Shown one piece after another: positions 1 through 58,970 of a stretch of 64,000 bases of DNA (position 1 is its first letter; each line of letters starts with the position of its first letter). The DNA is from Chiloscyllium plagiosum (taxonomy: Eukaryota), in the NCBI RefSeq assembly GCF_004010195.1, contig NC_057723.1:17050387-17114386 (forward strand), in the 5' to 3' direction. The notes under the pieces were generated by a model. It was given only the letters and a program-made list of their open reading frames with translations. It ran no database searches and had not been told where the DNA came from. The position numbers were made by a program, and so were the translations under genes.

Positions 1-1296
1 TATAGTTGTCTTTCTTGACTTCTCTTGTTCTAACTTTCCCTTCAATTTCCTTTTTAAACATCCAGTTTGTCCCCTCCCCCCCGCTACTTAGTTTAAATGT
101 AGCGGTGCTGCAGTGGAAAACCTGCCTGCCAGAATGCTGGTCCCTAACCTATTAAGGTGCAAACCGTCTCTCTTGTAGAATTTATGTTTACCACAAAATA
201 TACCCCAGTGATCCACGAACTTAAATCCTTGCTTCCTGCACCAGTTCCCCAACCACACGTTCAAGTCCATTATCTCCCTGTTTCTGGCCACACCAGCACG
301 AGGAACTGGAAGCAAACCGGAGATAACCACCTTGGACATCCTGCTTTTCAGCCTTCTTCCCAGTTCTCCGAAGTCCCTCTGTAGTTTGTTCCTCGTCTTC
401 TTCCCGACATCATTTGTGCCGACATGTACCACCACCTCTGGCTCTTCACCCTCGTCCTTGAGGATTTCCTGCACTCTGTCCGCGATGTCTTTCACCCTGG
501 CACCAGGAAGGCAAAACACCATCCTTAAATCCCGTCTGCTGCCACAAAAACCCCGGTCAGTTCCTCTCACGATGGAGTCCCCTATTACCACGGCTCTGTG
601 CGATGTCCGACTCTTCCGCTCTGCCTCTGCGCCAACCTTTGATTGACAGACCTGGCCGCCTTGCGAACTGGCAGTGTCATCAGTCTCTACTGTTTCCAAA
701 AGCTTCAACTTGTTCCTGTCAGGTATTTCTCCCGGGGTCTCTTGCACCTGTCTCCTCTCTGCCTTCCTCATCGTCTGCTGTCTTCTGCTCTCTTCTGGTA
801 TGATCGGTGTAATAACCTCGCTGAAGATCTTGTCCGGAAAGATCTCGTTCTCTCGGATGAGCCTAAGGTCCTCGAGTTCTTTCATCAGCGCTGCAATATG
901 CTCGGTCAATAGCTGAATGTGCACACACTTTCCCCACACATATACGAGCCAGACACACCAGAGTCGTTGACCTCCCACATCAAGCACGTAGCGCACTGAA
1001 CCAGCTGGGCAGTCATGTCTTCACCCTCTTCAACTGTGGTGTAATCACTTCACTCAAACTTCTTGTCAAAGATTCCTGAGCTGAAGCCTCACTCTTTGAA
1101 CCAAACTTCCTTAGACCCTCTTTGTGGCAAGTCTGTGGACTCTTAATTTAGGTTAGAGGAGGAGGGAGGGAGGGAGACCCTACTTTGTAGGACCTGGGGT
1201 TTAGAACTCACCCACTCTAATAGCAATCACTTACCTTCCCGACCGGCTTTGCACTCCGCCTGAACTTCCGCCCAGCTCCCGCCGCTCTCTGCTGCG
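1..1296 (-). mobile_element. 5' portion of a young CR1-clade LINE (5'UTR + ORF1; ORF2 lies off the left edge)
   Basis: CpG-rich, low-decay segment encoding an SGNH-esterase ORF1; GC-rich 5' end near 1296 abuts an older CR1 fragment. Confidence 0.88.
88..1016 (-). pseudogene. CR1 ORF1 protein: N-terminal Cys zinc-finger, coiled coil, SGNH/GDSL esterase; one frameshift at ~930-935
   Basis: ATG at 1016 gives MTAQLVQCATCLMWE..YMCG, which continues in the 88..996 ORF frame as KCVHIQLL; SGNH blocks VVIGDSIVRG, CLPGARVKD, VHVGTNDVG and DGLHLN are intact. Confidence 0.88.
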
Positions 1297-1760
1297 AAAT
1301 TGTCTGTATCTCTCTCACAAATTTCCTTTGCACTTATTATTGTGCTGTCTGCAGATTTGGCTACATGCATTCCTTCTTTCATCCAGTCATTAATATGTTC
1401 TGTAAACATTTGCAGTCACAGCATAGATCTTGTGAATTCTCACTGATTACAGGTTGCTGATCCTTCAACTAAGGTGAACAGCTGCTTTCTGTCAAACCTG
1501 GCAATGCCCTTCATAATGTTAAATTCCTCTAATTGGCAACTTCCCCATCAAACCCCCTCTGCTCTAAAGAAAATGGCCCGAGCTTATCTGGCCTCTCTTC
1601 TGAGCTGAAATGCTCCATCCCTGGTAACATCTCCTGATGAGTCTCCTCTGCACACCCTACAATGGGGTGATTAGGATGCAACACTGTACTCCAACTGTGG
1701 CCAATCACAAGTTCTGTACAGCTCCAACATAACACCCATGCTCTTATAATCTATGTCTCA
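1297..1760 (-). mobile_element. Old CR1 RT fragments
   Basis: Decayed AKSADSTII (FADDTK-like) and LPGMEHFSSEERPDKLGPFSLEQR (CR1 C-terminus). Confidence 0.7.
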
Positions 1761-3119
1761 TCACACATCGACTCAACACATTTTGCATTTCACACTACTG
1801 GGCTACAATACCCAACCTGAGTGGAGATGGCTAATAACTTAAATGGCCAGTTGCCTCTGTCAACCATGTATGCACAAAATGCCAGGAGCCTCCATCCCCG
1901 CTGATATGCAAATGGGCAGTGTTCAGTGTGGAATCTCGACCTATGATTTCCAGACATGTCTGCCATTTTTGCCACAATGGAAATTGGGGCCACTCAAATG
2001 ATTCACACTTTACTCATTTTTAATGTTTCATGCAAATAGTGGGCTGCCTTGGTCGGTTAAAGCAACTCATAAAATTCTCGACAAATTATTTTTATTTGAA
2101 AGATTTATGGTCAGTTTCTGTTCTCTGCAATCAGTCAGTGTTATTTCATTCATAGTATTCTTTCTGCCAATTGACATGTCTGTTAAATTGATTGTCTATT
2201 CATTGTGTCAAAAGCATTAAAGCAACTGGGTCACCTTATTTGCAAACATATTGCAATTTTTTTTTGAAGAAAAAGAATTGCTTCAAGTGGAGAATTTGGC
2301 CTGGTACAAAATGTTTCCTAAATCAACTTCATTGCAGTAATTTGCATAATGCAGCACATGTTTATGTACTGACCCTGTTGCAACCTTTGTTGTTTAACTG
2401 GTCTGCACAAGTACTGAATCAGCCATTTCAGAGAAGTGTGTGAGATATTTCTCCCAGTGAGGTCAGCAAGAAGCAGAAAAAGAACTTTGTATTTTCAGTA
2501 CATTGATGTATTCAGAAAGGTATTGGATGATTGGATTGTGCAAGGATATAGGAAAAAGGCAGGAGATAATACAGCCAGTGCACATATGATGGGCTGAATG
2601 GTCTCCTTCTGCAATTCTGTGAGTCTGTGAAGATAGGGCTGGCTGATGATCTGTTGCATTCAGCTTCAAGTGTCAGACCCATTTGAGCATCTGGTGTGAG
2701 ACAAGGTATGGAAACATTGTGATGATTTTGGCTGGGCTCCTGCCCTATAATTGTAGTCATATCAACAATATAAAGAAAATATGTTATAAATCAATTCAAA
2801 TGTTTGCAACACTTAAAACAAAAATGGCAATGCCACGGTGAGGGTTGACAAGAGATTTTGCTAGGGTAGTACTTGACATGAGAGCGATTTAGAAAGGCTA
2901 GAGAAGCTTCAAAAGGAGATGGTTAATAGAGGGTTTAACAAAGGTGTTCAAAAGTGTGGAAGAATAGAAAGGAGAAACTATATTCACAAGAGAGAGGGAT
3001 GCTAACCGAAGGATACAATTGGTGAAAAGGTGGGAGATGATAATCAGCAAGTTATGATCTGAAATAAGAATAGTAGAAGCGTATCGTATACACTTCTTGT
3101 AATATCGAGAAATGGGTAA

Positions 3120-3490
3120 AATCACTGGATGCTGCAAAGGCCATTGGTACTGATACCATTCCGGCAATAGTTTTGATGCCTTGTGCTCCAGAACTAGCCA
3201 TAATCCTAGCCAAGCTGTTTCACTTTAACCATAACCCTGGTATCTGATACCAGTATGGAAAATTGCCCATGTACGTCTTATCCACAGAAATCAGGAAGAA
3301 TAACACTTGGTCAATTACCATAGATCAGTCTATTCTTAACTGTTAGGAAAGTGACAGAAGGTATCATCAACAGTGATATCAAGCTGCACTTAATCAGCAA
3401 TAACCTGCTTACTGATACCTAGTGTGAGCTCTGCCAGAGCCACTCAGCTACAAGCCACGTTATAGCTTTCCTCCACACATTGATGGAAGA
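3120..3490 (+). mobile_element. CR1-clade LINE RT N-terminal fragment
   Basis: Reads as AKAIGTDTIPAIVLMPCAPELAIILAKLF, similar to the KAxGPDxIP..L..CA.EL motif. Confidence 0.7.
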
Positions 3491-3504
3491 GTAGAGTAGA
3501 CTAA

Positions 3505-3715
3505 CTTCATTTGTCACTTCTACCATATACAGCTGGTACAATAAAAACGAGACAGCGTTCCTCCAGGAACAAGATGCTACATGAACATACAGATGACACG
3601 AGAGTACCGTCGTACACAGGGCAGCATAAAGTGCATAGAAAAGTGCAAAACATGCAAGACAGCACAGTCACTCCTGATAAGACAAGGCAATAGGCACAGT
3701 GGTAGTCAAGAGAAA
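3505..3715 (-). mobile_element. Probable Rex1/Babar-type LINE 3'UTR fragment
   Basis: Minus strand ends ...gtgacaaatgaa, resembling the GTGACAATAAA 3' ends of the Rex1-like copies at 49755 and 62048. Confidence 0.4.
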
Positions 3716-3717
3716 TT

Positions 3718-3874
3718 TTAAAAATCATATAACATCAGTTTATAGTCCAACAGGTTTAGTTGGAAGTACAAGCTTTTGAAGCGCTGCATCTTCGTCAGAT
3801 AGCTAGTGGGGCAGGATCATACAACACAGAATTTATAGTAAAAGATCTAAGTATTGTACAACTGATGTGATGTA
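3718..3874 (-). mobile_element. Penelope family-B 3'/pLTR fragment (decayed hammerhead)
   Basis: tatagtccaacaggttt..tggaagtacaagctttt..gcgctgc, shared with copies at 7577, 47710, 50799 and 58749. Confidence 0.7.
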
Positions 3875-3946
3875 GAGAATAACCTCGGTTATTTGAACAT
3901 CAGTTATCCGAATATCGGATTATCTGAACAAGATCTCAAGGTCCCT
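3875..3946. mobile_element. Tigger/pogo-like MITE terminal region (one end only)
   Basis: Follows a TA; aacctcggttatttgaac..ttatccgaatatcggattatctgaac has internally repeated ttatccgaa motifs typical of Tigger-like TIR regions. Confidence 0.55.
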
Positions 3947-4536
3947 CTACATGCATTTCAATTGAAGTTCGAAATTTCTATTCTGCTTCCATTTAATGCA
4001 TCATTTTGTAAATTTGAACAGGAATATAGATCCAAGTATGCTTTAATAAATGATTAACTTCAAATATATGCTCAAGATGTGATGTCAGTGTTAAGTCTTA
4101 CACTTTTTATAAAAAAGGCTCTCCAATACTTAGTCTCCTCGAGGAGAAAGACTTGTGACTGTGAACACACAAGAACAACATATGTGCAAGCTTGAGCTGT
4201 GCGATTGAACAGCAAGATTCCGTCTCAACATTGACTCGCTCCATTTTGCAAACCCAACAATATTTTTCCTCAGTTCATTCCCCAGAGAGTTAATTTCAAA
4301 AACGCGCTCGCACTTTACATTTCCATTGCTTTTTGGACGGTGGGACGACACTGAACAGAAAGATACCAGCTGCTGTTGAGGACCGGGATAAAACCGAGAA
4401 AAACGCCAGCGACAACTTTCACAGACTTCAGTCAAACTCTAGCCAAAAAGTGATTCTGTTCATAAAATATCATGAATTTTTAAACAATATCCAGTGTTTG
4501 TACACATTTTATTGATTGAATGAAATAAAAGATGGA

Positions 4537-4900
4537 AATGTGTTGCTGGAGAAGCGCAGCAGGTCAGGCAGCATCTAGGGAACAGGAGAATCGACGTTTC
4601 GGGCATTAGCCCTTCTTCAGGAATGAGGAAAGTTTGTCCAGCAGGCTCAGATAAAAGATAGGGAGGAGGGACTTGGGGGAGGGGCGTCGGAAATGTGATA
4701 GGTGGAAAAAGGACAAGGTGAGGGTGATAGGACAGATTGGGCTGGGGGCGGAGAGGTCGGGAAGAAGATTGCAGGTTAGGGAGGCGGTGCTGAATTTGAT
4801 GGATTTGACTGAGACAGGCTGGGGGGAGGGGAAATGAGGAAACTGGTGAAATCCGAGTTCATCCCTTGTGGTTGGAGGATTCCTAGCCGGAAGATGAGGC
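4537..4900 (-). mobile_element. Young Penelope family-A 3' end with pLTR and hammerhead core; runs into the gap
   Basis: Peptide LIFRLGILQPQGMNSDF (GIY-YIG C-terminus), same family as 34450 and 40106; CpGs retained. Confidence 0.85.
4593..4620 (-). ncRNA. Minimal type-I hammerhead ribozyme core in a Penelope pLTR
   Basis: Minus strand CTGAAGA-A-GGGC-TAAT-GCCC-GAAA-CGTC: CUGANGA and GAAA boxes, 4-bp stem II, palindromic ACGT stem III, GUC triplet. Confidence 0.7.
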
Positions 4901-5674
4901 NNNNNNNNNNNNNNNNNNNNNNNNNNNNNNNNNNNNNNNNNNNNNNNNNNNNNNNNNNNNNNNNNNNNNNNNNNNNNNNNNNNNNNNNNNNNNNNNNNNN
5001 NNNNNNNNNNNNNNNNNNNNNNNNNNNNNNNNNNNNNNNNNNNNNNNNNNNNNNNNNNNNNNNNNNNNNNNNNNNNNNNNNNNNNNNNNNNNNNNNNNNN
5101 NNNNNNNNNNNNNNNNNNNNNNNNNNNNNNNNNNNNNNNNNNNNNNNNNNNNNNNNNNNNNNNNNNNNNNNNNNNNNNNNNNNNNNNNNNNNNNNNNNNN
5201 NNNNNNNNNNNNNNNNNNNNNNNNNNNNNNNNNNNNNNNNNNNNNNNNNNNNNNNNNNNNNNNNNNNNNNNNNNNNNNNNNNNNNNNNNNNNNNNNNNNN
5301 NNNNNNNNNNNNNNNNNNNNNNNNNNNNNNNNNNNNNNNNNNNNNNNNNNNNNNNNNNNNNNNNNNNNNNNNNNNNNNNNNNNNNNNNNNNNNNNNNNNN
5401 NNNNNNNNNNNNNNNNNNNNNNNNNNNNNNNNNNNNNNNNNNNNNNNNNNNNNNNNNNNNNNNNNNNNNNNNNNNNNNNNNNNNNNNNNNNNNNNNNNNN
5501 NNNNNNNNNNNNNNNNNNNNNNNNNNNNNNNNNNNNNNNNNNNNNNNNNNNNNNNNNNNNNNNNNNNNNNNNNNNNNNNNNNNNNNNNNNNNNNNNNNNN
5601 NNNNNNNNNNNNNNNNNNNNNNNNNNNNNNNNNNNNNNNNNNNNNNNNNNNNNNNNNNNNNNNNNNNNNNNNNN
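4901..5674. other. Assembly gap (774 N)
   Basis: N run. Confidence 1.
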
Positions 5675-7229
5675 TTTTTTTTTGTTTGGATGAAATGTGG
5701 ATAATATTGGATAATAAATAAAGTTCAAAATCAGCTGGGACTAAATTAACCAAAGGTGCATTTACCAAGATTGAATCTTTGCCTGATGCTATAAATGTAA
5801 TAAAATTTTACTGGGCCAGATTGATCAGAGTGACAAGCAGTAAAGCTGACTTCAATTCTTTTCTGCTAGTTATAGCCTACCCACTTAAGGGAAGGGATCA
5901 GCATTCAAAGCCAGTTCTTTTAGATCAGCAAAGCTGCCAGTCCTTCCGCCTTCTACCCCACCACGGCAATCCCACCTCTGAGTCTAAATCTTGGTAGAAT
6001 GAAAACAGGATTGAGATCATGGTTGCAAATGATCCTTAGTTGCTGAAAAATTCATTGAACACTTTAATAACTAAAGTCTTCACAGATTACGGCACTAGAA
6101 ATAAGTGAAATTATTGTATGATGGAAGTAGAGTGAATGGCCAGGAATATCATGGGCAGCATATTAATAATTTGCAATGGCCATTTGTACTGAATGGTGTG
6201 TGTGCAGACCTGCAATGGACTGGACATCACCATTTCCTTATTCTTACATTTGCACTTCAGAAATGCACTTCAGAAATATACATATAACTCTCAAAGGATC
6301 AAAATGTTTGGAACAAGGTATGGCTGGGTACTGACTACGAAAGAGGCAAAGGAAGGGACAACGTTTCTGTACAAAATGACAATTTGCAAAAATGAACTAG
6401 CTTATTCTCTGGTGGCAGGACGAATTCTCTCAGGATTTCTGTTGTAAAGTTAGCTTAATTTCCGCACTGACACACTGATATCTGCAAAGTTTGGTGCAGA
6501 TCATATTCTTTCATCCTCATGAGCGTTGTCACTCCCAGGGAAGTAGGATTAAGCTAAGAATTGCCTCTGCTTCCCCCATTTAAATTTGTTTCACCCTATA
6601 TTACCTTAAAAAAATGCAACATCTAAAAGAACTTTTCAAATCAAATCAACTTCTAAGCTGTTAGCTCAACGATTGTATGTCCATCAGCTTCCACGATTAA
6701 GGAAACTATTATGTGCATCTTGGCTAACATGCTCAAACATGGTGGACTTTGTTCCTCCTTAATTTAGCAGTAGACATAGCTCAGAAATGCTCAGTGTTAG
6801 AAAAACATCGAAACTTTCAAAATGGTACACGATGGTCCAAAGATTGTCATTCCTGGAAGGGATCATGTTTACCAACATGGTAATATCAGGGAAATGTGAA
6901 TGTCTATGAAGTCTTTGTGGTTTCACAGCAAGGCTGGTCTAGGGAATGCCTCACATTTGCCTTGAGTCAGGATGGCTTAGTCATGGGGTTCAGTAACCAG
7001 TGCACTAATTGTTTCTTAGTGAACTTCACAGCAGAAAATGTACTTCGACCCCTATATAAAATGGGCTCCATGAAATCAAATGGTTTATTATATAAAATAT
7101 TTTACAAAAAGAGTACTCTTAGATGATAGATACTGCTGGTCAATTTGAGACAGCTTTATAGCATTAGGCACATTCTCTACAGAGTTTAAACAGAAACGAC
7201 AAGTTATATTGGCATAATTTTTGGCAAAT

Positions 7230-7570
7230 TAAAACATCTCATGGAGCTTCACAGAAGCATTATGAACCAAAGTTAAATACCAAGTATCATATGATATTAG
7301 GGTAAATGGCTGAAGGTTTGATCAAAGAAGCAGGTTTATAAATGAAGAAAGAAACAAGCAAATAAGTCTGCAAGCTTTAGGGAGGCAACTCCAGAGCTTA
7401 GGCCTTGGCAGATGGACATTGTCACCAGTGATGGAACTATTAAATGCAAGACGCTGAAATTAGATAAACATAGATTTCCAGGAGGGTTTTGGGGGATGGA
7501 GGAGATTACAAAGATAGCAAAGAGCAAGGGCATGAAGGGATTTCAAAACAGGAATGAGAATTTTATTATT
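7230..7570 (-). mobile_element. Old L2-like LINE 3' fragment (mirrored at ~11106-11446)
   Basis: ggaggcaactccagagcttaggccttggcag motif recognised as an L2 C-terminal segment. Confidence 0.5.
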
Positions 7571-7576
7571 GTGCTT

Positions 7577-7660
7577 CACCTGATGAAGGAGCAGCGCTCC
7601 AAAAGCTAGTGCTTCCAATTAAACCTGTTGGACTATAACCTGGTGTTGTGTGATTTTTAG
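7577..7660 (+). mobile_element. Penelope family-B pLTR unit with mutated hammerhead (mirrored at 11016-11099)
   Basis: CAC-CTGATGA-A-GGAGC-AGC-GCTCC-AAAA-GCTA-GTG; GAAA box mutated to AAAA. Confidence 0.75.
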
Positions 7661-8418
7661 CTCAGTCAAAAGAAGTACATTTAAAGTTCTGTGAATTGAG
7701 AGTCACATTGATCCAACCTATGTGTTAGGCTAGCGTGGTAGAGCAAGATTATACCCTGAAGAATACAACATAGCAAGATGTCAATCATGGATACAAAGTC
7801 AGGGAATGAAGGTAACGGTGAATTCTGAGTGAGGCAGATTCACTGTGGATTACTGTCTCACAGATGATTAGTGGCTCATTCCAGATAGCAGAAGCCTGCT
7901 ATTACTGTTCGCGCCCGCCCTCCACTTCCTCTCAACCACAGAGTGGTTGAGGTCTGGAAGTGACAAATAATAAGGAGAGACAACAAAACTAAACATCAGA
8001 AAAAGTGAAGAAATGAACCTGTTTGGTTTACAGATTAAACGTTGCTCTGTCTAAATAACAGCTGAAGAATTAAATCTATACTTTTCTTAAACAAACTCTT
8101 AGATTAGTCAAGAAATTCCAATGCATGATTTGACACTTTGCAATCTGGCTGCAAATTATACTGAGATCTATATTTAAGTGATAACTTCTTTTAGCCAAGA
8201 GTCAGCAAGGCAATTGATAGGTTCCGTGAAACATCACGGTGATTTATCAAAGACTGGGAACATATTGCTTGCCAAGGACACTGCAGACAAATGCTTTGGC
8301 TGGGACACTAACTTTATTTATTAAAGTGAATTGTTAAAATTAATCTCAGAGTTCATCATAAAAGCATACAGAACAAATAGGCAGTTCAGTCGATAGTGTC
8401 TGTTTTAGTTCTTCAAAA

Positions 8419-8561
8419 GGCAGCAAGGTGGCTTAGTGGTTAACACTGCTACCTCACAGCACCAGGGACCTGTGTTCAATTCCAACCTCAGGTGACTGTG
8501 TGGAGCTTGTACATTCTTCCCGTGTCTGTGTGGGTGTGCTCCAGTTTCCTCCCACAATCCA
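8419..8561 (+). mobile_element. HE1 (V-SINE) 5' half, truncated at the inner arm boundary
   Basis: tRNA-like head ggtggcttagtggttaacactgct, B-box gttcaattcc and V-domain start. Confidence 0.85.
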
Positions 8562-8769
8562 CAATCCCACAATGTTTGAGAGAGGGTCTGCGTGAGTGTG
8601 ATTGTGTGTGTGCACATGTGTGTGTTTGTGTATGTGTGTATGTGTAGTATAGTGGGGTCATAGGACACAGAATTTATAGTAAACAAATCAAAGTGTCATG
8701 CAACTGATGCCATGTATTGATCAAACCTAGAATGCTGTTAAGTCTTTAATCACTTAGAATAGGTTGCAA

Positions 8770-9560
8770 ATGGCAGTGACTGCTCTTGATACCAAGGCAT
8801 GAAATTAACATCTAGAAGAATCAAAGTGCTCTAGCAATACTGAAGGCAATGGGATTGGGGGATTTCTTCACTGATTAGAACTATATGAAGCACAGGGGAA
8901 GATGATTGTGTTTGTTGAAGGTCAATTATTTCAGCCAAAGAGCATCACTGTAGAAATTTCTCTACCTGGTGAATTGGATAATCCATAGAAGTACTGTAGC
9001 TAGAACAGCAGGTGAAGCAAAGAATTCAATATTGAGTAACTGTCTCTCTACTGCTGACAACCACCCAAAGGGCACAATGCTAGAAATGTGGTGAAATACC
9101 CACCCAGTCTAAATGGCTGCAGCTTTAACAAAGCTCAAGAGATTCAGAACCATCCAGAATAGAGTGTCACATTTTAGTGGCACCCTATCTACCACCATCT
9201 ATATTTCCTCTCTTCACCTCTGATGCACATTGGCGGCAGTGTGTAACATTTATATGATGCCCTGTAATAACTCACCAAGCCTATTTTGACTGCACTTTCC
9301 AAACTCACAACTTCCACTAACTCAAAGAACAAGAGCTGCAAATGCATTAGAACATCACCAACTACAAGTTCCCCTCCAAGACATACACCACCCTGGTTTG
9401 GAATTATTCTATCATTTCTACACAGCTGCTGGATCAAAATGATGGAAGTCTTCCCTAAAATTACTGTGGGTGTACCCACCCTGTCTGAACAACAGAGGAT
9501 CAAGAAAGCAGGGAATTAGGGATAGACAATGAGTAATGATGTAACCATCCACCATATCAT
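8770..9560 (+). mobile_element. Decayed CR1-clade fragments in the palindrome spacer
   Basis: Similar to the CR1 at 24830-26450 (gaagatgattgt..gttgaaggtca; aagctcaagagattcagaaccatccag). Confidence 0.6.
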
Positions 9561-9939
9561 GTGAACAAATAAGAAGAATATCCCATTTGCTGACACAAAT
9601 GATCCAAGAATGAATGATGGCTGCACATGCTCATTTCTATTTTTTAAACTGTGAATGCCCACATAAATGAAACAGACCCTGATTTATTAAAATTACTTTA
9701 TTTACTTTCTTTTAACCAATATATTTTTCATTTTCCCTAATATTTAGGGCTTTTTAATCAGGTTTTATCACTCTTTACTTGAATATATTTGAAACGCTGC
9801 TGCTACTGATTTTGCTCTCAGCTGTCATCAAACAGAACCTAAAAAAATCAAATAGTAATTACCAAGAGGAAATTGGATCTCTACTTAAAAGGATCAGCTC
9901 TTGGGGTATGAAAAAAAAGCACATAATCAGAGGGAGCAG

Positions 9940-10257
9940 TTAGAGTTAGAATGCCACCTGTGTGGGAACAGTCCCTTCAGCCCAACAAGTCCACACTGAC
10001 CCTCCAAAGAGTATCCCACACAGACCCATTCCCCTAACATTTACCCCTGACTCATGCATCTAACCTATACATGCCATAATTTAGCATGGCCAATTCATCT
10101 GACCTGCACATCTTTGGATTGTGGGAGGAAACTGGAGCACACCCACACAGACACGGGAAGAATGTACAAGCTCCACACAGTCACCTGAGGTTGGAATTGA
10201 ACACAGGTCCCTGGTGCTGTGAGGTAGCAGTGCTAACCACTAAGCCACCTTGCTGCC
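9940..10257 (-). mobile_element. Full-length HE1 (V-SINE) spanning the inner boundary of the right arm
   Basis: Head, V-domain (gatgtgcaggtcagatgaattggccatgctaaatt) and HER1-like tail (ggacttgttgggctgaaggg..(tctaac)n). Confidence 0.88.
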
Positions 10258-13200
10258 TTTTGAAGAACTAAAACAGACACTATCGACTGAACTGCCTATT
10301 TGTTCTGTATGCTTTTATGATGAACTCTGAGATTAATTTTAACAATTCACTTTAATAAATAAAGTTAGTGTCCCAGCCAAAGCATTTGTCTGCAGTGTCC
10401 TTGGCAAGCAATATGTTCCCAGTCTTTGATAAATCACCGTGATGTTTCACGGAACCTATCAATTGCCTTGCTGACTCTTGGCTAAAAGAAGTTATCACTT
10501 AAATATAGATCTCAGTATAATTTGCAGCCAGATTGCAAAGTGTCAAATCATGCATTGGAATTTCTTGACTAATCTAAGAGTTTGTTTAAGAAAAGTACAG
10601 ATTTAATTCTTCAGCTGTTATTTAGACAGAGCAACGTTTAATCTGTAAACCAAACAGGTTCATTTCTTCACTTTTTCTGATGTTTAGTTTTGTTGTCTCT
10701 CCTTATTATTTGTCACTTCCAGACCTCAACCACTCTGTGGTTGAGAGGAAGTGGAGGGCGGGCGCGAACAGTAATAGCAGGCTTCTGCTATCTGGAATGA
10801 GCCACTAATCATCTGTGAGACAGTAATCCACAGTGAATCTGCCTCACTCAGAATTCACCGTTACCTTCATTCCCTGACTTTGTATCCATGATTGACATCT
10901 TGCTATGTTGTATTCTTCAGGGTATAATCTTGCTCTACCACGCTAGCCTAACACATAGGTTGGATCAATGTGACTCTCAATTCACAGAACTTTAAATGTA
11001 CTTCTTTTGACTGAGCTAAAAATCACACAACACCAGGTTATAGTCCAACAGGTTTAATTGGAAGCACTAGCTTTTGGAGCGCTGCTCCTTCATCAGGTGA
11101 AGCACAATAATAAAATTCTCATTCCTGTTTTGAAATCCCTTCATGCCCTTGCTCTTTGCTATCTTTGTAATCTCCTCCATCCCCCAAAACCCTCCTGGAA
11201 ATCTATGTTTATCTAATTTCAGCGTCTTGCATTTAATAGTTCCATCACTGGTGACAATGTCCATCTGCCAAGGCCTAAGCTCTGGAGTTGCCTCCCTAAA
11301 GCTTGCAGACTTATTTGCTTGTTTCTTTCTTCATTTATAAACCTGCTTCTTTGATCAAACCTTCAGCCATTTACCCTAATATCATATGATACTTGGTATT
11401 TAACTTTGGTTCATAATGCTTCTGTGAAGCTCCATGAGATGTTTTAATTTGCCAAAAATTATGCCAATATAACTTGTTGTTTCTGTTTAAACTCTGTAGA
11501 GAATGTGCCTAATGCTATAAAGCTGTCCCAAATTGTCCAGCAGTATCTATCATCTAAGAGTACTCTTTTTGTAAAATATTTTATATAATAAACCATTTGA
11601 TTTCATGGAGCCCATTTTATATAGGGGTCGAAGTACATTTTCTGCTGTGAAGTTCACTAAGAAACAATTAGTGCACTGGTTACTGAAGCCCCATGACTAA
11701 GCCATCCTGACTCAAGGCAAATGTGAGGCATTCCCTAGACCAGCCTTGCTGTGAAATCACAAAGACTTCATAGACATTCACATTTCCCTGATATTACCAT
11801 GTTGGTAAACATGATCCCTTCCAGGAATGACAATCTTTGGACCATCGTGTACCATTTTGAAAGTTTCGATGTTTTTCTAACACTGAGCATTTCTGAGCTA
11901 TGTCTACTGCTAAATTAAGGAGGAACAAAGTCCACCATGTTTGAGCATGTTAGCCAAGATGCACATAATAGTTTCCTTAATCGTGGAAGCTGATGGACAT
12001 ACAATCGTTGAGCTAACAGCTTAGAAGTTGATTTGATTTGAAAAGTTCTTTTAGATGTTGCATTTTTTTAAGGTAATATAGGGTGAAACAAATTTAAATG
12101 GGGGAAGCAGAGGCAATTCTTAGCTTAATCCTACTTCCCTGGGAGTGACAACGCTCATGAGGATGAAAGAATATGATCTGCACCAAACTTTGCAGATATC
12201 AGTGTGTCAGTGCGGAAATTAAGCTAACTTTACAACAGAAATCCTGAGAGAATTCGTCCTGCCACCAGAGAATAAGCTAGTTCATTTTTGCAAATTGTCA
12301 TTTTGTACAGAAACGTTGTCCCTTCCTTTGCCTCTTTCGTAGTCAGTACCCAGCCATACCTTGTTCCAAACATTTTGATCCTTTGAGAGTTATATGTATA
12401 TTTCTGAAGTGCATTTCTGAAGTGCAAATGTAAGAATAAGGAAATGGTGATGTCCAGTCCATTGCAGGTCTGCACACACACCATTCAGTACAAATGGCCA
12501 TTGCAAATTAAGGTAATATCTGGAATATTGTGTGCAGTTTTGGTCGCCATACTATAGGAAGGATGTGGAGGCATTGGAACGGGTGCAGAGGAGGTTTACC
12601 AGGATGTTGCCTGGTATGGAAGGAAAATCGTATGAGGAAAGACTGAGGCACTTGGGGCTGTTTTCACTAGAGAAAAGAAGGTTTAGGGGTGACTTGATTG
12701 AGGTGTACAAGATGATTAGGGGGTTAGATAGGGTCGACAGTATGAACCTTTTCCCGCGTATTGAGTCGGGTATTACAAGGGGGCATAGCTTTAAATTAAG
12801 GGGGGGTAGATATAGGACTGATGTTAGGGGTAGGTTCTTCACTCAGCGAGTCGTTAGTTCATGGAATGCCCTGCCAGTAACAGTGGTGGACTCTCCCTCT
12901 TTATGGGCATTTAAGAGGGCATTGGATAGGTATATGGAGGATAGTGGGTTAGTGTAGTTTAGGTGGGCTTGGATCGGCGCAACATCGAGGGCCCAAGGGC
13001 CTGTACTGCGCTGTATTCTTCTATGTTCTATGTTCTATGTTCTATTAATATGCTGCCCATGATATTCCTGGCCATTCACTCTACTTCCATCATACAATAA
13101 TTTCACTTATTTCTAGTGCCGTAATCTGTGAAGACTTTAGTTATTAAAGTGTTCAATGAATTTTTCAGCAACTAAGGATCATTTGCAACCATGATCTCAA

Positions 13201-13536
13201 TCCTGTTTTCATTCTACCAAGATTTAGACTCAGAGGTGGGATTGCCGTGGTGGGGTAGAAGGCGGAAGGACTGGCAGCTTTGCTGATCTAAAAGAACTGG
13301 CTTTGAATGCTGATCCCTTCCCTTAAGTGGGTAGGCTATAACTAGCAGAAAAGAATTGAAGTCAGCTTTACTGCTTGTCACTCTGATCAATCTGGCCCAG
13401 TAAAATTTTATTACATTTATAGCATCAGGCAAAGATTCAATCTTGGTAAATGCACCTTTGGTTAATTTAGTCCCAGCTGATTTTGAACTTTATTTATTAT
13501 CCAATATTATCCACATTTCATCCAAACAAAAAAAAA
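10115..13536 (-). repeat. Right arm of large inverted duplication (2888 bp + 534-bp CR1 insert)
   Basis: Base-for-base reverse complement of 5675-8561, with about 6 substitutions and one 1-bp indel seen by eye. Confidence 0.98.
12511..13044 (+). mobile_element. Young 5'-truncated CR1 (HER1-like) insertion, present in the right arm only
   Basis: Uninterrupted ORF 12532-12957 (QFWSPYYRKDVEALERVQRRFTRMLPG..LFSLEKRR..FFTQRVV..WNALP); (TTCTATG)n tail; empty site ttgcaaatta|ttaatatg in the left arm. Confidence 0.95.
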
Positions 13537-14074
13537 CTTCTCATAAAAAGTAAGACTTGGCTATCCCTAAGGCTGTGCACTCTTCCACCATGTAGGTGTA
13601 AAAAGCTGAAACAAAGTCAATATTTTTTGACTTGAAAGACTATATGCTAATATATGGGAGAAGTGAGTACTTGTTATCAAAAGACAGCCTGTTAAAACAA
13701 ATTTATGTTTCAATTTACTTTTCAGTTGTTAAGAAAGTGTATTTTCAGTACAATCTGCAAAAATGTTATTATTCTTTATGCTGCATCTTTGGGGAACATT
13801 AAATGAGTAACTGCAATAATTTAAGTCACTTTTGAAAATGGACACTATATAAAAAGCTGAAAATGTGCACTTTTAATATGGAGCAAGATGCAGTTACTAT
13901 GTGTTGTATTAGTTTTTTTTCTCCCTCTTTCTATTTCTTGGACATTTGCATTATGTCTCCAATTTTACCAAATAGTTTCATTTCCTGCTCACAGTTTATT
14001 GGAGGCCTTGTGATTTTTACATTGTCGGTCTGTAAGATCAATCAACTCAATATCTGCAGTCCTTACAATCTCCA

Positions 14075-14410
14075 AATTGCTGAAAAGTCTGACGTGCTGT
14101 GCTTTCTCAGCTCCACATTTTATCAACTCTGACTTCCAACACCTGCAGTCCTTATTATCTCCATGTCCCACAGACAGCAGGTTCAATATGCAATTGGAAC
14201 AATGAAGCCAAACTCTGCATGTGCAGAGTCAAAAAGTGTGGTGGTAGAAAAGCACAGCAGGTCAGGCATCAACCGAGGAGCAGGAGTGTCGATGTTTCAG
14301 GCAAAAGCTCTTCATCAGGAATGTGGAGAGGGAAGGGGACTGAGAGATGAATGGGGCTGGGGGTCGGGCTGGGGGGGAGGGGAAGGTAGTTGGGAAGGTG
14401 ATAGGTTCAG
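14075..14410. mobile_element. Penelope family-A pLTR fragments in both orientations
   Basis: gtgctgtgctttctcagc..ctgcagtcc, and aaaagcacagcaggtcaggc..gatgtttcaggcaaaagctcttcatcaggaa. Confidence 0.65.
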
Positions 14411-14464
14411 AGTCGGCTGTTATTACATTGCCATGATTGTTGTGAAGTCTATAGCTCAAAGGGG

Positions 14465-14925
14465 AAGGGGCGATGGTCTGCTGGTATTACCACTAGCTTA
14501 AAAATGTGTTGCTGGAAAAGCGCAGCAGGTCAGACAGCATCAAAGGAGAAGGAGAATCGATGTTTCGGGCATAAGCCCTTCTTCAGGAATCTGCTGCGCT
14601 TTTCCAGCAACGCATTTTTAAGCTCTGATCCCCAGCATCTGCAGTCCTCACTTTCTCCCAGTTGGTATTATCACTAGACTATTAAACTGAGGCATGATTT
14701 CAAATCCTGCCATAACAGATGGTGGAAGCTGAATTCAAGAAAAGTCTGGAATTAATTATGACAATGAAACTATTGTTGTTTGTCAGGAAAAGCCCATCAA
14801 GCTCACTAACATCCTTCAGGAAAGGAAAATACTGTCCTTACCTGGTCTAAATCACTAGAGCCACAGCAATAGTTGATTCTGAACTGCCCTGTGGGCAACA
14901 CCACATCCTTGGAATGAATTTAAAC
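14465..14925 (+). mobile_element. tRNA-head SINE (shark-type), interrupted by a Penelope-derived unit
   Basis: A-box-like head, tcaaatcc B-box, body shared with 33310 and 54330. Confidence 0.65.
14497..14662. mobile_element. Self-complementary Penelope family-A unit with hammerhead core and 15-bp TSD
   Basis: Arms aaaatgtgttgctggaaaagcgcagcag / ctgctgcgcttttccagcaacgcattttt; TSD tggtattaccactag / tggtattatcactag. Confidence 0.8.
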
Positions 14926-16544
14926 GAGTTCCATCACACTTCAAAGTAGCATTTGTATTTGAAGCATTTTGATTGTGAACTCATTCTTCATTTTGGGTAG
15001 CTGTGCTTGTGTGGTGCACAGTCTTTCTACCCAGCATGCTGAATTATATGCTTTCTATATGAATATCAATTGGTTCCCAGAAGCATAGGAAATTGTCTTG
15101 AAAAACTCTTTCTTATAGATTAGGAAAGTGTTCGAACTAGGCATTTAATATTGAGCCATATTGTTCTATACCTGAACCTACCATAGCACATGTGTAAGTG
15201 AGCTATCCCTATTTAGTAGTACATACATAGAAACTGTAATTGAAGTGTCCACTTATAGGGCAGTGAAGATTAGCACCTTTGTATACAGTACAGACAAGGG
15301 TTAAAATATAGTCAGAAAAATTCACAAAATGTCAAATGTGAATGAATTGTCCCTTTTGTCTGTTATGTAACAGCCTTACAACTTCTCCCATTTCTTATTC
15401 CCGAAAGTACAAAGTGGTTATTTAGTGGGGCAGAAGGTCATGTAATAAAATATAATGCACTGAGTGAAACAGGAAAGAGCAATTCACTTAATGGATTAAA
15501 AGAATGAGAATATGTGAATGTGTTAAGATTGCTGCCTTTTCATCATATTGAAAAGGAAAATACGCTTTTGATAATCAGTTGTTCAACAACTATCACTTGC
15601 TGAACTCTTAAAGTGTTATTATGAACTGACTGGATGGAATTTTCCCCTCAGCATGGTGTGGGCAAAGTTAGGAAACTGAAAAAAAATCAGAATCTTGATG
15701 CTGCAAAGAAGTGTCATTTAGGATTTGAATCTCATTATAGATTGGCAACCATCTCATTTCCATGCATTTGCTTTTCATTATTATCCTGAGTCACCTGATT
15801 TATGTTCCACTTTCTCTTTCACCCTTCCTTCCCTGAGGAACTAACTGGTATAAACTCCTGACATGCAAGCTTACATGGGTAACTGGAGTGTTCAGCTCAC
15901 TGATTGCTTGTCCCAGCCATCATCCAAGTGCGTGTGCAGCACAGTATCCCTGCAATTTACACCAGCCTCCTCTATCCATGCAAGGAAGCTTGGCAAACTA
16001 CTAGCCTCACCACATCATCATGCCCACTCCTGGACCAACTTGCACACCACATCAAGCCTTCATCACTGTACCCTGAAGTTTAGACGCACCTCTGACTGGC
16101 ATGTTTCTGCCAAGTTGTTTTGTGTACGGGGACCTATTCTTCTTCATATGATCATGTAGTGGTTCTTAGCTTGCTTTCTCTGCACTGACTCACTTTATAC
16201 TCACTTGGAGGCTGCCAGCCCCTTTGTGGCTGACAGGGCTTTCAGTCTGAAGTTACAGTGTGCCACCTTCTGTGTCTTTAATTGATTTTAGAGCAGAAGA
16301 AGACGCATGCAGCTTGCCATGGTAAGGAAAGCTGACATGACAAACAGGTGGAAAGGTCATTACCTGCCACCATTGGTGTGTCAATATCACACCTGCAACA
16401 TAGACCAGTCGCTTTTATGGGAAATGCAAAAATCAAAGGGGAGCAGTCCTTAGTGAGGTGAACCAGGACCACAGCCATTCAGAGGCTGCTATTAAAGCTC
16501 AGTCAATGGGCTCCAGTCCAGGGGATTGGCCACAGTCCTAAGGT

Positions 16545-16855
16545 GGGGGAAAGTGAGGATTGAAGATGCTGAAGATCAGAATCGAGAATGTGGTGCTGGA
16601 AAAGCACAGGTCAGGCAGCATCCGAGGAGCAGGCGAATTTACGTTTTGGGCATAAGACTTTCAAAAGGAATGAGGCTTGTGAGTAATGGAGGTAGAGAGA
16701 TAAATGGGAGGGGTGTGGGGCTGGCATTTATCTCTCCAGCCCCATGGCCCACCAGTCTCATTCCTGATGAAGGTCTTATGCCCAAAGCATTGATTGTTCT
16801 GCTCCTTTGATGATGCCTGACTGGCTGTGTTTTTCCAGCACCACACTCTCAACAG
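16545..16855. mobile_element. Palindromic Penelope family-A unit (decayed)
   Basis: gagaatgtggtgctggaaaagcacag ... ctgtgtttttccagcaccacactctc inverted arms. Confidence 0.75.
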
Positions 16856-17249
16856 TCAATAAGGCTATTAGTTCCTCAAGAATCTGGGAATCTATGCTTT
16901 TGATGTCTGAGAACTGGAACACAGTCCATCCAGCAGGTCAAATGCAACCTGTTTAAAAATTACAGGTGGTGGGGCTGTGGAGACATCAGTTCAGGGGGAT
17001 GGACCAACATTGCCTGATTGAGAAAAAGGTGGTGGGGGCAAGGTGGGTGCAGAATTGAACTGTGCTTGAACTGCATAAAAGAATAGTTAGTGGTGATGCA
17101 GGGGCAGATGTGGTGATGTGGCCCCAGTAAATAAGTAATAAGTATGGAGGGCAGGGAGAGTTAGTGGTTTGGGTGAATAAGGTGGCTGAGAGTCATTGAG
17201 TGGATCTGAGAATTCTGGTCCATAAGCCTTGGTGCAATATATGTGGCAT

Positions 17250-18425
17250 GGCAGTGCTAGATTGAATGGTGGCCTATGGATCATACCTAACCAATCTGTT
17301 AGAATTTTTTGAGAGAGGTAACAGGTAAGTTGGACAGAGGAGACCCAGTGGATGTATCTATTGAGATTTCCAGAAGCCCTTTGACAAGGTGCTGCACAGG
17401 AGGCATAAGATAAGGGGCAAGATACTAGCATGGATAGAGGATTGCCTGACTGGCAAAAGGCAGAAAATAGGAATAAAGGGGTATTTTTCAGGATGGCGGC
17501 TGGTGACTAGTAGAATTCCACAAAAGTCCATATTAGAACCACAATCATTCATGTTATATATTAGTAATCTGGGGGAAGGAACTGAGGGCATCATTGCAAG
17601 GTTTGCAGATGACATAAAGATAGATGGAATAACAGGTAGTACTGTGGAAGTGGAGAGACTGCAGAAGGACTTACATAGGCTGAGAGAGTAGTCAAGGAAG
17701 TGTCAGATGGAATTCCATGTGGGAAAGTGTGAGGTTATGCCACTTTAGTAGGATGCATAGTTGTATAAACTATTTTCTAAAAGAGGAAGGCTTTGGAAAT
17801 CTGAAACACAAAGGGACTTGAGAGTCCTAGTTCAGGGTTCTCTTAAGGTTGACATGCAGGTGCAGTTGGCAGTTAGGAAGGCAATTGCAGTGTTAACATT
17901 CATTTGAGAGGGCGAGAATACAAGAGCAGGGAAGGGGTACTACTGAGACTGTTTAAGGCTCTGGTCAGAACACACTTGGAATATTATAAGCAGTTTGTGC
18001 CGAAATCAAAGAAAGGATGTGCTGGCTTTGGAGAGGGTCCAAGGGGATGAAAGTCTTGTCACATGAATAGTGGTTGAAAACCCTGTTGTCTCTACTGAAT
18101 GGAGTTCAGAAGGATGGGTGGGGATCTCATCACAACTGCCAGTACACTGAGAGACGTGGATAGAGTAAACATGGTGAAGGTCTTTCTACTAGTAGGAGAA
18201 ACTATGACCCAAGGGCACATCCTCAGAATGAAGGGACAAGCCTTTAGAACTGAGGTGAGGGGGGGAATTTCTTCAACCAGAGGGTAGTGAATCTGTGCAA
18301 CTCATTACTGCAGGTTACAGGAAAAAGGCAGGATAATGGGGTTAAGAAACCTATAAGGGCATGATTGAATGGCGGAGCAGACTTGTTGGATTGAATGGGC
18401 TAATTCTACTCATATATTTTATGAC
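17250..18425 (+). mobile_element. CR1 RT pseudogene fragment with 3' end
   Basis: LAWIEDCLTGKRQKIGIKGYFSGWRLVTSRIPQKSILEP..IARFADDIKI; CR1 tail. Confidence 0.9.
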
Positions 18426-20089
18426 TTGCTGGCTCTGGCAGACTGAAGTAGCAGAGAAAAGGTGGGTGAACTTATACTTGTTAAACACAGAATCATTGAC
18501 CTTCTTCTTGCATTGCTGGACATCTCACTTCAACTGAGGCACATCACTGATGCAGGATGCCACTTGAGTCCAGACTGGCTGTCTCTGGTGGCATGGCCTT
18601 TTGTGGCTGTCAGCAGGGGAACAAATGGGCCTCCCATCCACCACCCTGTCTGCCAAAACCTCCAGGTTCCTGTCTGCAAAGCAGAGTGCATGTTACATTT
18701 TGTGCCATAATGCCCTGTCAACATGGTGTGAGAGGTACTCCCTGGCTTGCAGCACCTGAAGTGAAGTGCAGCTGAGCTTTACATATAGTCTGAGCAGCAA
18801 GAACAGTGCAATATCCAAATAGTGGTGAATGCTTTGGTTTTAATTGTGTTCAATTCCACGAGAAAGGAGCTGGAAAGCCTGGATGCGGGGTTAATGAAGT
18901 GCAGTGTAGGAAGATTCATATGAAAAATAGCTGCATGCCAAGGTAGACCAGACACCATAGGTCTCTCTCAACAATACACTCCACCTGCAAACAGGCAAGT
19001 TCTGTCTTTAGTCTCATATAGTTCTTTCTTATCAAAGCTTCAGCCATAGCAAGTCCGTTTCCATGGATTTGACCATTCTTGTGCTTAAATAATAAATTGT
19101 ATGTCCAATTGAATAAGTGAGTACATTTTAAAATAAGTTGCTATTACATTAACTGTGAAGACTGTTTTACAACTCGACTTCAATCCGTCTGCCCTGTACA
19201 CATCATTTAGCATTCATGAGTGTGAATCTCGTCGAGGTCCACTTATCATCTATTATCTACAGATGTCTGATATTAACAACTGTAAGTGTAGAAGTTAAGC
19301 AGGAGGTTAGTCCCCTTAGGTCTAAAAAAATGTGAAGCACTAAATGTCTGTGATTAACAGGGAGCCCAACCATTTAAAGTCTGTAAAATAACTCCACAAA
19401 TGCAGAAGTTAAACATAGGGTTCATCCTCCAGAGTACAATAATAAGAACAGCATCAATGTTGGAGGGCAAGTGAATGGATCTGGATGTAAAGCACTTGTA
19501 TGCATTAAGAGAGAAAATTGCCAAATGGCATTTCTGGCCCAAAGCCAAAGAATTGAGAACAAAATACTGCACCAATCAGTTAATGAGCTAAGGGGTCAAA
19601 TTCAGCTGGAATACTTGTCTTATCTGTTCACTGTTTCAGTAACACCCAGAAAATGACAATAAAATTTAACCGAATGTGCCTTAAAATACTAAATTACATT
19701 TAAAATAGCTATTACTCACAAATGCAGTATCAATTTATCTTTAAGCCATGTCTCTGTACAATATATTGCAGTTTATATAACATTTTAAGGCATTTCAACA
19801 AAATAAACACTTCTTGTTCCTCAGCCTTAACATCTTGTTATCTAACATAATGATTCTGGGATAATGCAGGGGTCTGCATTAAACTCCACTCAATCTGATA
19901 CAAGCTTGCATTGACATAATATAGACCATTATAGGAATTTGTGGAGCACAGACCTATATCCTCATTGCCTTAGAGTAACAATATTTATTTAGTTAATGTA
20001 ACTTGTACCTGACTGCTATCATGCAATAACTACATCTTGTTTAAGATAAGAGCCTCTTCTCTTCAAGACTCGCTAGTAGTCATTTCTCT

Positions 20090-50798: not shown

Positions 50799-51017
50799 TG
50801 TCATGATTTGGAAATGCCGGTATTGGACTGGGGTGTGTAAAGTTAAAATCACACAAAGTCCAACCAGGTTTATTTGGAAGCACTAGCTTTCAGAACGCTG
50901 CTCCTTCATCAGGTGATTGTGTTTATCACAATCACTTGATGAAGGAACGGCACTCCAAAAGCTAGTGCTTCCAAATAAACCTGTTTGACTATAACCTGGT
51001 GTTGTGTGATTTTTAAC
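50799..51017. mobile_element. Palindromic Penelope family-B unit with two hammerhead-like cores and 9-bp TSD
   Basis: TSD cttctggtg / cttctagtg; minus-strand core CAC-CTGATGA-A-GGAGC-AGC-GTTCT-GAAA-GCTA-GTG at 50881-50915. Confidence 0.82.
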
Positions 51018-58748: not shown

Positions 58749-58970
58749 TCATGATTTGGAGGTGCCAGTGTTGGACTGGGGTATACAAAGTTAAAAATTA
58801 CACAACACCTGGTTATAGTCTACCAGGTTTATTTGGAAGCACTAGCTTTCAAACCATTGCTCCTTCATCAGGTGATTCTGGCCACAACCACCTGATGAAG
58901 GAGCTCTGAAAGCTAGTGCTTCGAAATAAACCTGTTGGACTATAACCAAGTGCTGTGTGATTTTTAACTT
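58749..58970. mobile_element. Palindromic Penelope family-B unit
   Basis: Arms 58788-58874 / 58889-58970 plus a ~40-bp unpaired extension, same architecture as 50799; acttagtt near both ends. Confidence 0.82.

Follow-up and report, generated by a model that had tools for sequence, protein, structure and literature searches.

Among the marks listed for false duplications in genome assemblies is a gap beside the near-identical copies (Ko et al. 2022, PMC9516828). Fold-back inverted duplications, described in human chromosomes, have the order arm-spacer-arm (Hermetz et al. 2014, PMC3907307), and for short inserts such as those that polymerase-theta-mediated end joining leaves, repeated rounds of annealing and extension are the explanation given in print (PMC4032859). 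The locus described here, in a 64,000-nucleotide stretch of Chiloscyllium plagiosum DNA (the window), resembles each of these in part: two inverted arms, 99.8% alike in the assembly, flank a spacer, with a scaffold gap outside the left arm (Table 1). We consider it likely that the arms represent both alleles of a 2.9-kb segment that is present in single copy, the second of which was likely placed in reverse into the scaffold gap, and that the palindrome is probably present on no chromosome.

Self-BLAST and global alignment pair positions 5675-6168 with the reverse complement of 13043-13536 (494 bp, 100%) and 6167-8561 with that of 10115-12510 (99.7%). An earlier note described 5675-8561 and 10115-13536 as reverse complements of each other, which is exact apart from the differences that it listed, all of which were reproduced by alignment: six substitutions (left/right 6920/11757, 7140/11536, 7148/11528, 7198/11478, 8078/10598, and 8443/10233), one 1-bp indel (an extra base at 11688), and an insertion of 534 bp in the right arm only, which we take to be CR1-like and which contains an RT-like frame of 146 aa (12517-12957) and a TTCTATG tail. 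A 1.444-Mb sample of the assembly that includes the window holds no second local pair of near-identical inverted segments of at least 1 kb, so the inverted match of the arms is far beyond chance. A unique segment of the arm has two matches in the whole assembly, both inside this locus. The longest stop-free frames span 91 aa in the arm and 108 aa in the spacer, and the segment is apparently non-coding. We agree with the earlier note that the arms are not the TIRs of a transposon.

Table 1. Features of the locus in window positions; the labels MITE-like, Penelope-like, SINE-like, and CR1-like are our presumptions
Feature	Position	Strand	Remarks
Old MITE-like repeat	3873..4530	.	Broken off at 4530
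Young Penelope-like element	4533..4900	.	Runs into the gap; 39 other places, 98-99% over the full 365 bp
Scaffold gap	4901..5674	.	774 N
Left arm	5675..8561	-	Likely the CR1-empty haplotype of a single-copy segment, in reverse
Junction J1	8551..8573	.	Three tandem units CCCACAAT/CCACAAT/CCCACAAT
Spacer	8562..10114 (1553 bp)	.	Single copy in assembly; candidate inverted segment
GT-rich interspersed repeat, older, partial	8572..8660	+	Cut off at J1; 76-97% to L013-L020
SINE-like repeat	9940..10249	-	9940-10257 against L015, 9940-10239 against L033
Right arm	10115..13536	+	Likely the original position; haplotype with CR1-like insertion
CR1-like insertion, very young, 5'-truncated	12511..13044	+	Reported at 100% in 39 further places
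Downstream flank D	13537..14132	+	Single copy in assembly; graph break predicted at 14132

The left arm starts with the first base after the gap, and its outer end stops, as had been noticed earlier, at the N run within a T run: the nine T at the gap edge match the nine A at 13528-13536, with no foreign base. This edge is one of 13 among 87 gap edges that lack a match to a dispersed repeat, and the sole one with an exact local duplicate, in favor of the two-allele reading. Of the 45 gaps sampled, a duplicate adjoining the gap occurs at a single one; this rarity counts against reading the arms as two alleles, as does the occurrence in the assembly of gap-free fold-backs with short spacers, of which 1.444 Mb holds two. 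Two further observations at the gap point the same way: the arm ends exactly where the A9 run does, which is how a real outer junction or fork would behave, and on the two-allele reading, if gap sizes are arithmetic, about 3.7 kb of DNA would have to be missing from 4900 to the spacer, against 4 of the 45 sampled gaps that measure at least 3 kb and 7 that fall at 600-950 bp. The same outer edge and the same two gap-free fold-backs favor a private, young inverted duplication (U-arm'-J1-spacer-arm-D) carried by one of the sequenced animal's chromosomes and formed by fold-back or template switching, which we regard as possible but doubtful; the 774-N gap would also be consistent with the remainder of a short Penelope-like element together with the MITE end, but the lack of any foreign base beyond the arm speaks against a duplication.

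Among the matches listed, 10 loci of the MITE-like repeat extend beyond 4530 with one common sequence, and the last ~130 bp of this repeat have no match within positions 1-20000 of the window, so this end must sit in unassembled DNA. In 3 of the 9 Penelope-like copies checked (L022, L023, and L030), an N gap begins at the identical position of the element; the lengths of the copies do not separate the models. The repeat piece at 8572-8660 was considered as a continuation of the Penelope-like element and rejected, because the two do not align.

Depth and allele data come from contigs of other animals' runs, X1 and X4 being other animals of the best-matching species and X9 a related organism B; at 6696, 8226, and 8264, X1 matches neither arm, and the sequenced animal is therefore apparently not among the runs. 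Positions 5675-7602 are covered, without the CR1-like insertion, by a single contig of 2524 bp at depth 8.66 in X1 and by one of 2525 bp at depth 19.5 in X4, and a single contig covers 5675-7165 in X9, with a 740-bp overhang; rather than both arms, each of the three has one contig across the outer arm. The ratio of arm to spacer contig depth, a poor proxy for copy number, is 1.02 in X1 and 1.06 in X4, without the raised arm copy number expected of a true fold-back; the patchy X5 (5.7-48.3) and two half-depth X4 spacer contigs (8.0 and 7.8) were left out of these ratios. Three depth observations run against the two-allele reading, namely the arm/spacer ratio of 1.54 in X9 (arm/upstream 1.13), the deeper arm of X4 (20.2, vs. 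14.8 on the upstream contig), and the patchiness of X5.

The X1 and X4 contigs extend 596 bp beyond 5675. The 30-mer at 14103-14132 has one other place in the assembly, the common stretch beginning exactly at 14103, so a k=31 graph contig that enters D must stop at 14132, that is, at 13536+596. The contigs end exactly at this predicted break, and hence the gap edge has no fork in either X1 or X4. The exactness of the prediction makes it unlikely that the 596-bp overhang is gap content instead of D.

The two arms differ by 7/2887 (0.24%), and the left arm differs from X1 by 9/2742 (0.33%) and from X4 by 16/2700 (0.59%); in the epaulette shark, pi is 0.002 (PMC10587355). The copy-specific variants behave as alleles at four sites. 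X1 shares the state of the left arm at 8078 and at the 6988 indel, where X4 and X9 agree with the right arm; at 7148, all four runs (X1, X4, X5, and X9) have the right-arm state; and at the CR1 site, the contigs of the same four have the empty, left-arm state. Two derived left-arm variants recur in the single-copy contig of X1. Given the single-copy depth, an arm distance below that between animals, and these shared left-arm variants, the arms behave as two alleles.

An established palindrome, with arms that diverged after duplication or were kept alike by conversion and with the potential to yield ~2.9 kb of dsRNA, is accordingly very improbable. The identity of the arms itself agrees with it, and conversion could in principle carry left-arm variants to the main locus, but X1 and X4 have a single copy with no fork at its outer edge, the differences segregate among animals, the stop-free frames are short, and the six substitutions would require ~1.5 million generations (hand arithmetic from the epaulette-shark rate, PMC10587355, assuming mutation alone). 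The last figure also tells against the earlier note's proposal that the palindrome is very recent. Neither its alternative of arms kept homogeneous by conversion, other animals apparently having a single arm, nor its proposed dsRNA found any evidence, and its fold-back segmental duplication gives way, because the arm in X1 and X4 is single-copy and runs into D and the differences segregate, to the caveat that it had added itself, two haplotypes placed head-to-head, which the depth and allele evidence favors.

The SINE-like repeat crosses 10114|10115 intact, indicating that the right junction, J2, is ancestral; its left-side copy is cut at 8561. At J1, about 12 nt of the tandem units have no arm origin, and the junction reads as an iterated copying of 10116-10125 via 2-nt microhomologies, a putative mechanism; a tandem copy of at least 7 nt appeared at a random join in 28 of 200000 trials. 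Given this iterated templated insertion, J1, known from the assembly sequence, is probably a genuine scar of DNA repair carried by one chromosome.

The simplest source of the two-allele arrangement, and the one that takes the greater part of its likelihood although in itself it falls somewhat short of an even chance, would be a heterozygous inversion of the 1.55-kb spacer that the assembler walked through both alleles; we infer both the inversion and the path. One chromosome of the pair would retain the ancestral order U-spacer(+)-arm(with the new CR1)-D, and the other would have the spacer inversion, U-spacer(-)-arm(no CR1)-D, with a breakpoint inside the SINE that polymerase-mediated end joining may have sealed, with the ATTGTGG iteration at J1 as its trace. 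Collapsed in the assembly graph, the spacer would open into the arm at either end, and the path arm(allele 2, reversed)-J1-spacer-J2-arm(allele 1) would give exactly the assembled sequence. Among the best 40 candidates scored, a search that short overlaps would escape, no unplaced contig with either expected alternative junction and no second inversion junction was found in the assembly; the missing second junction weighs against the two-allele explanation. L170 was considered as a contig bearing an alternative junction and rejected as a paralog.

The two alleles could also have been joined without any rearrangement, if a gap-filling step jumped from the left end of the spacer to the SINE close by and wrote out the other arm allele; this improbable variant makes up the smaller part of the likelihood given to the two-allele reading. 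False duplications have been described as arising from gaps that were filled incorrectly (PMC9516828), the arm adjoins a gap, and copies of the SINE family lie densely (of 127 matches in 1.444 Mb, 94 span the break position), but no other copy in the 1.444 Mb shares at least 20 bases up to the break, and an iterated 7-8-nt templated insert would not be expected from an overlap jump.

J1 resembles a biological junction, which again favors the private duplication, as does the 1553-bp spacer, inside the range of 766-70,466 bp for human fold-back spacers (PMC3907307). Both copies would then be of the left-arm haplotype, and the assembly would have taken its left arm from the duplicated chromosome and its right arm from the other, so that the seven differences and the CR1 would still be allelic. 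However, the left-arm haplotype would be present twice for each right-arm copy, yet the main position has the right-arm state at 7/7 sites and the CR1, and X1, with two left-arm variants, shows one copy. A very young germline fold-back on one chromosome, with 2.9-kb arms and a 1.55-kb loop, is therefore a rather unlikely source of the locus. If true, J1 would record synthesis on the SINE that microhomology primed in three rounds, and the locus would be a kilobase-loop counterpart of the short fold-backs found elsewhere in a slow-mutating genome: a further private structural variant, marked by a clear scar of repair, in DNA that is apparently non-coding, and of modest interest for shark mutation spectra.

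On the two-allele reading, the locus is a caution that in a gapped assembly of short-read type two alleles can take the form of a 99.8% palindrome next to a gap, and such a false palindrome possibly exposes a hidden heterozygous inversion; the same test is advisable for other palindrome findings in this genome. A brief search that included PMC9668749, too short to support a claim of novelty, returned no description of a heterozygous inversion assembled as an inverted repeat, and the word "invert" is absent from the main text of PMC9516828.

As in the heterotype false duplications of Ko et al. (2022, PMC9516828), near-identical copies lie on one scaffold with an adjoining gap, the copy-specific variants stand at allele-level distance, and there is a boundary of heterozygous and homozygous sequence, here the young CR1. 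Unlike in those duplications, as the main text presents them, the copy is inverted and joined gap-free at a biological-looking junction, and the gap lies outside the pair rather than between the copies. With the fold-back inverted duplications reported by Hermetz et al. (2014, PMC3907307), the locus shares the arm-spacer-arm order, a single-copy spacer whose length their range covers, and, where spacer and inversion meet, 2-nt microhomology or an insertion. The fold-backs of that report, however, are megabase-scale with terminal deletions, and a fresh fold-back duplicate would have identical arms, whereas the present arms are of two haplotypes, and a single copy is present in other animals. 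The closest likeness of J1 is to the products of polymerase-theta-mediated end joining as described in PMC4032859, in which a short insert is templated beside the break in rounds primed by 1-2 nt; J1, a single junction seen in the assembly, differs from those cases in that it joins inverted ends rather than the ends of a simple deletion.

The two arms matched as the earlier note had described: self-BLAST, a repeat finder and global alignment bore out base for base that the left arm is the reverse complement of the right, and global alignment put the differences at six substitutions, a single added base at 11688 and, in the right arm, an insertion of 534 bp. In the genome assembly (G000; 3.56 Gb in 101,977 pieces), where the window is G000:C14:17050387-17114386, a unique segment of the arm matches these two places only; spacer and downstream flank D each occur once. 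No other local inverted pair of at least 1 kb at 97% identity or more was found in 1.444 Mb sampled from six G000 regions, including the region itself. Stop-free frames reach at most 91 aa in the arm and 108 aa in the spacer. The names CR1, Penelope, SINE and MITE are those that we take to fit the sequence features. Smaller structures seen along the way are included in the table; the tandem duplication among them could be allelic or real.

Features of the locus and other repeat pairs (window positions unless G000 is given)
Feature	Position	Description
Gap	4901-5674	774 N
Young repeat left of gap	4533-4900	98-99% to 39 other places
Left arm	5675-8561	ends at junction J1
Spacer	8562-10114	
Right arm	10115-13536	begins at junction J2 (10114|10115)
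CR1-like insertion	12511-13044	7 extra bases at 5' end; 2-bp TA overlap
Flank D	13537-14132	
Short imperfect hairpins	16584-16850, 50861-50987, 58785-58973	arm identity 75-85%; opposed repeat termini
Fold-back (L097)	G000:C2:50114908-50116172	gap-free; 573-bp arms, 99.8%; 119-bp spacer opening with a Penelope-like terminal piece; nearest gap >45 kb away
Inverted pair (L080)	G000:C14 block positions 455471-455964	gap-free; 207-bp arms, 98.6%; 80-bp spacer
Tandem duplication (L071)	G000:C14 block positions 366123-367431	649 bp, 99.4%; 11 bp between copies

Other animals were compared through the contigs of five of 24 sequencing runs (X1 and X4, from the best-matching species, X5, X6, and X9, from related organism B), and those of X1, X4, X5 and X9 were aligned to a reference with a single arm. 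At 6696, 8226 and 8264, X1 matches neither arm, and it is therefore not the assembled animal. On this reference, X1 and X4 each have one contig over 5675-7602, X9 has one over 5675-7165, and an X5 contig spans the CR1 site. Contig depth weighted by length, a weak measure of copy number, gave an arm/spacer ratio of 1.02 in X1 and, once two of its spacer contigs at half depth were set aside, of 1.06 in X4, whose upstream contig is lower, at 14.8. In X9 the ratio was 1.54, with arm/upstream at 1.13; X5 was too patchy to be included. The raised copy number expected of a shared inverted duplication was thus not seen in X1 or X4.

Given this weakness of contig depth, the break point was predicted independently. 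G000 contains a single further copy of the 30-mer at 14103-14132, and the shared stretch starts at 14103, so that a k=31 graph must break where contigs entering D end, at 14132. The X1 and X4 contigs both extend 596 bases past 5675, an end that falls at 14132 if they enter D; this agreement indicates that the outer end of the arm runs into D in both animals, with no fork. This test would miss a second copy that reaches past 14132, though the depth ratios disfavour such a copy. With the arm single-copy in the X1 and X4 contigs, the genomic palindrome proposed earlier is probably not physical, and the dsRNA envisaged from it requires both arms on one molecule, itself doubtful.

The distance between the arms is 0.24%; that of the left arm is 0.33% to X1, 0.59% to X4 and 2.6% to X9. 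Allele states come from the variant rows listed, which cover 8078, 6988 and 7148 and not 6920, 7140, 7198 or 8443. At 8078 and at the 6988 indel, X1 shows the left-arm state; X4 and X9 have the right-arm state at both, as does X5 at 6988 (it lacks cover at 8078). At 7148 all four runs have the right-arm state. The 6988 row, taken with X4 and X5 being one base longer, would represent the right-arm indel. That another animal has two derived left-arm variants at its single-copy locus is what alleles would show, whereas paralogues need extra events. At the rate given for another species in PMC10587355 (7e-10 per base per generation, CI 1.4-14.1e-10; pi = 0.002 in that species), six substitutions in 2887 bp amount, by hand arithmetic, to ~1.5 million generations, the scale of allele coalescence rather than of the "very recent" duplication once suggested. 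Under every model still considered, the arm differences are very probably allelic. The CR1-like insertion, with 39 other places at a reported 100% among the matches listed, is very young; absent from the contigs of X1, X4, X5 and X9, it is a usable polymorphic marker.

A SINE-like element spans J2 unbroken and its left-arm copy is cut at 8561, which marks the right arm as the original. J1 reads CCCACAAT-CCACAAT-CCCACAAT, then a truncated older repeat; on the minus strand this can be read as three starts at 10118-10124 (ATTGTGG), with AT and GG as the primers. Tandem copies of at least 7 nt arose at a random join in 28 of 200,000 trials of an approximate control, and iterated annealing and extension is how PMC4032859 accounts for such inserts. 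A chimeric join, with no real rearrangement, would give the same sequence, but we regard it as unlikely: the J1 insert looks enzymatic, and no other SINE copy in the sampled 1.444 Mb shares the 20 bases up to the break. A search of G000 for an alternative junction, in which the best 40 candidates were scored, turned up none. Our leading, still tentative, explanation for a second allele reversed at the far end of the spacer is a heterozygous inversion of the spacer. The spacer would then meet the arm at both ends, one allele through J1 and the other through J2, and just two arm copies would yield the assembled sequence.

On its left side the gap is an ordinary assembler break, since three of nine copies examined of the young Penelope-like family (L022, L023, L030) also give way to N at this position within the element; the young repeat there splits an old MITE-like element, whose last ~130 bp are absent from positions 1-20000 of the window. 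The right side is unusual: the arm opens with 9 T and zero foreign bases, and among 87 gap edges, 13 of them without a dispersed-repeat match, it alone exactly duplicates local unique DNA. Four gaps in the sampled G000 blocks are exactly 500 N, three without a repeat match on either side; unlike estimated gaps, these resemble scaffold joins of fixed size. Somewhat less probable than the spacer inversion is a private young duplication that lies on the left-arm chromosome, the assembly having drawn the right arm from the other one. It would account for the arm stopping at an A9 run, its spacer size fits human fold-back spacers (PMC3907307), and 774 bp is a more frequent gap size than the 3.7 kb that an inversion may need (7 versus 4 of 45 gaps).

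The assembled pair works like a heterotype false duplication as set out in PMC9516828, with a twist: the inner join here is inverted and gap-free. The depth and read-pair criteria for such duplications concern the source animal, whereas our evidence comes from the contigs of other animals.
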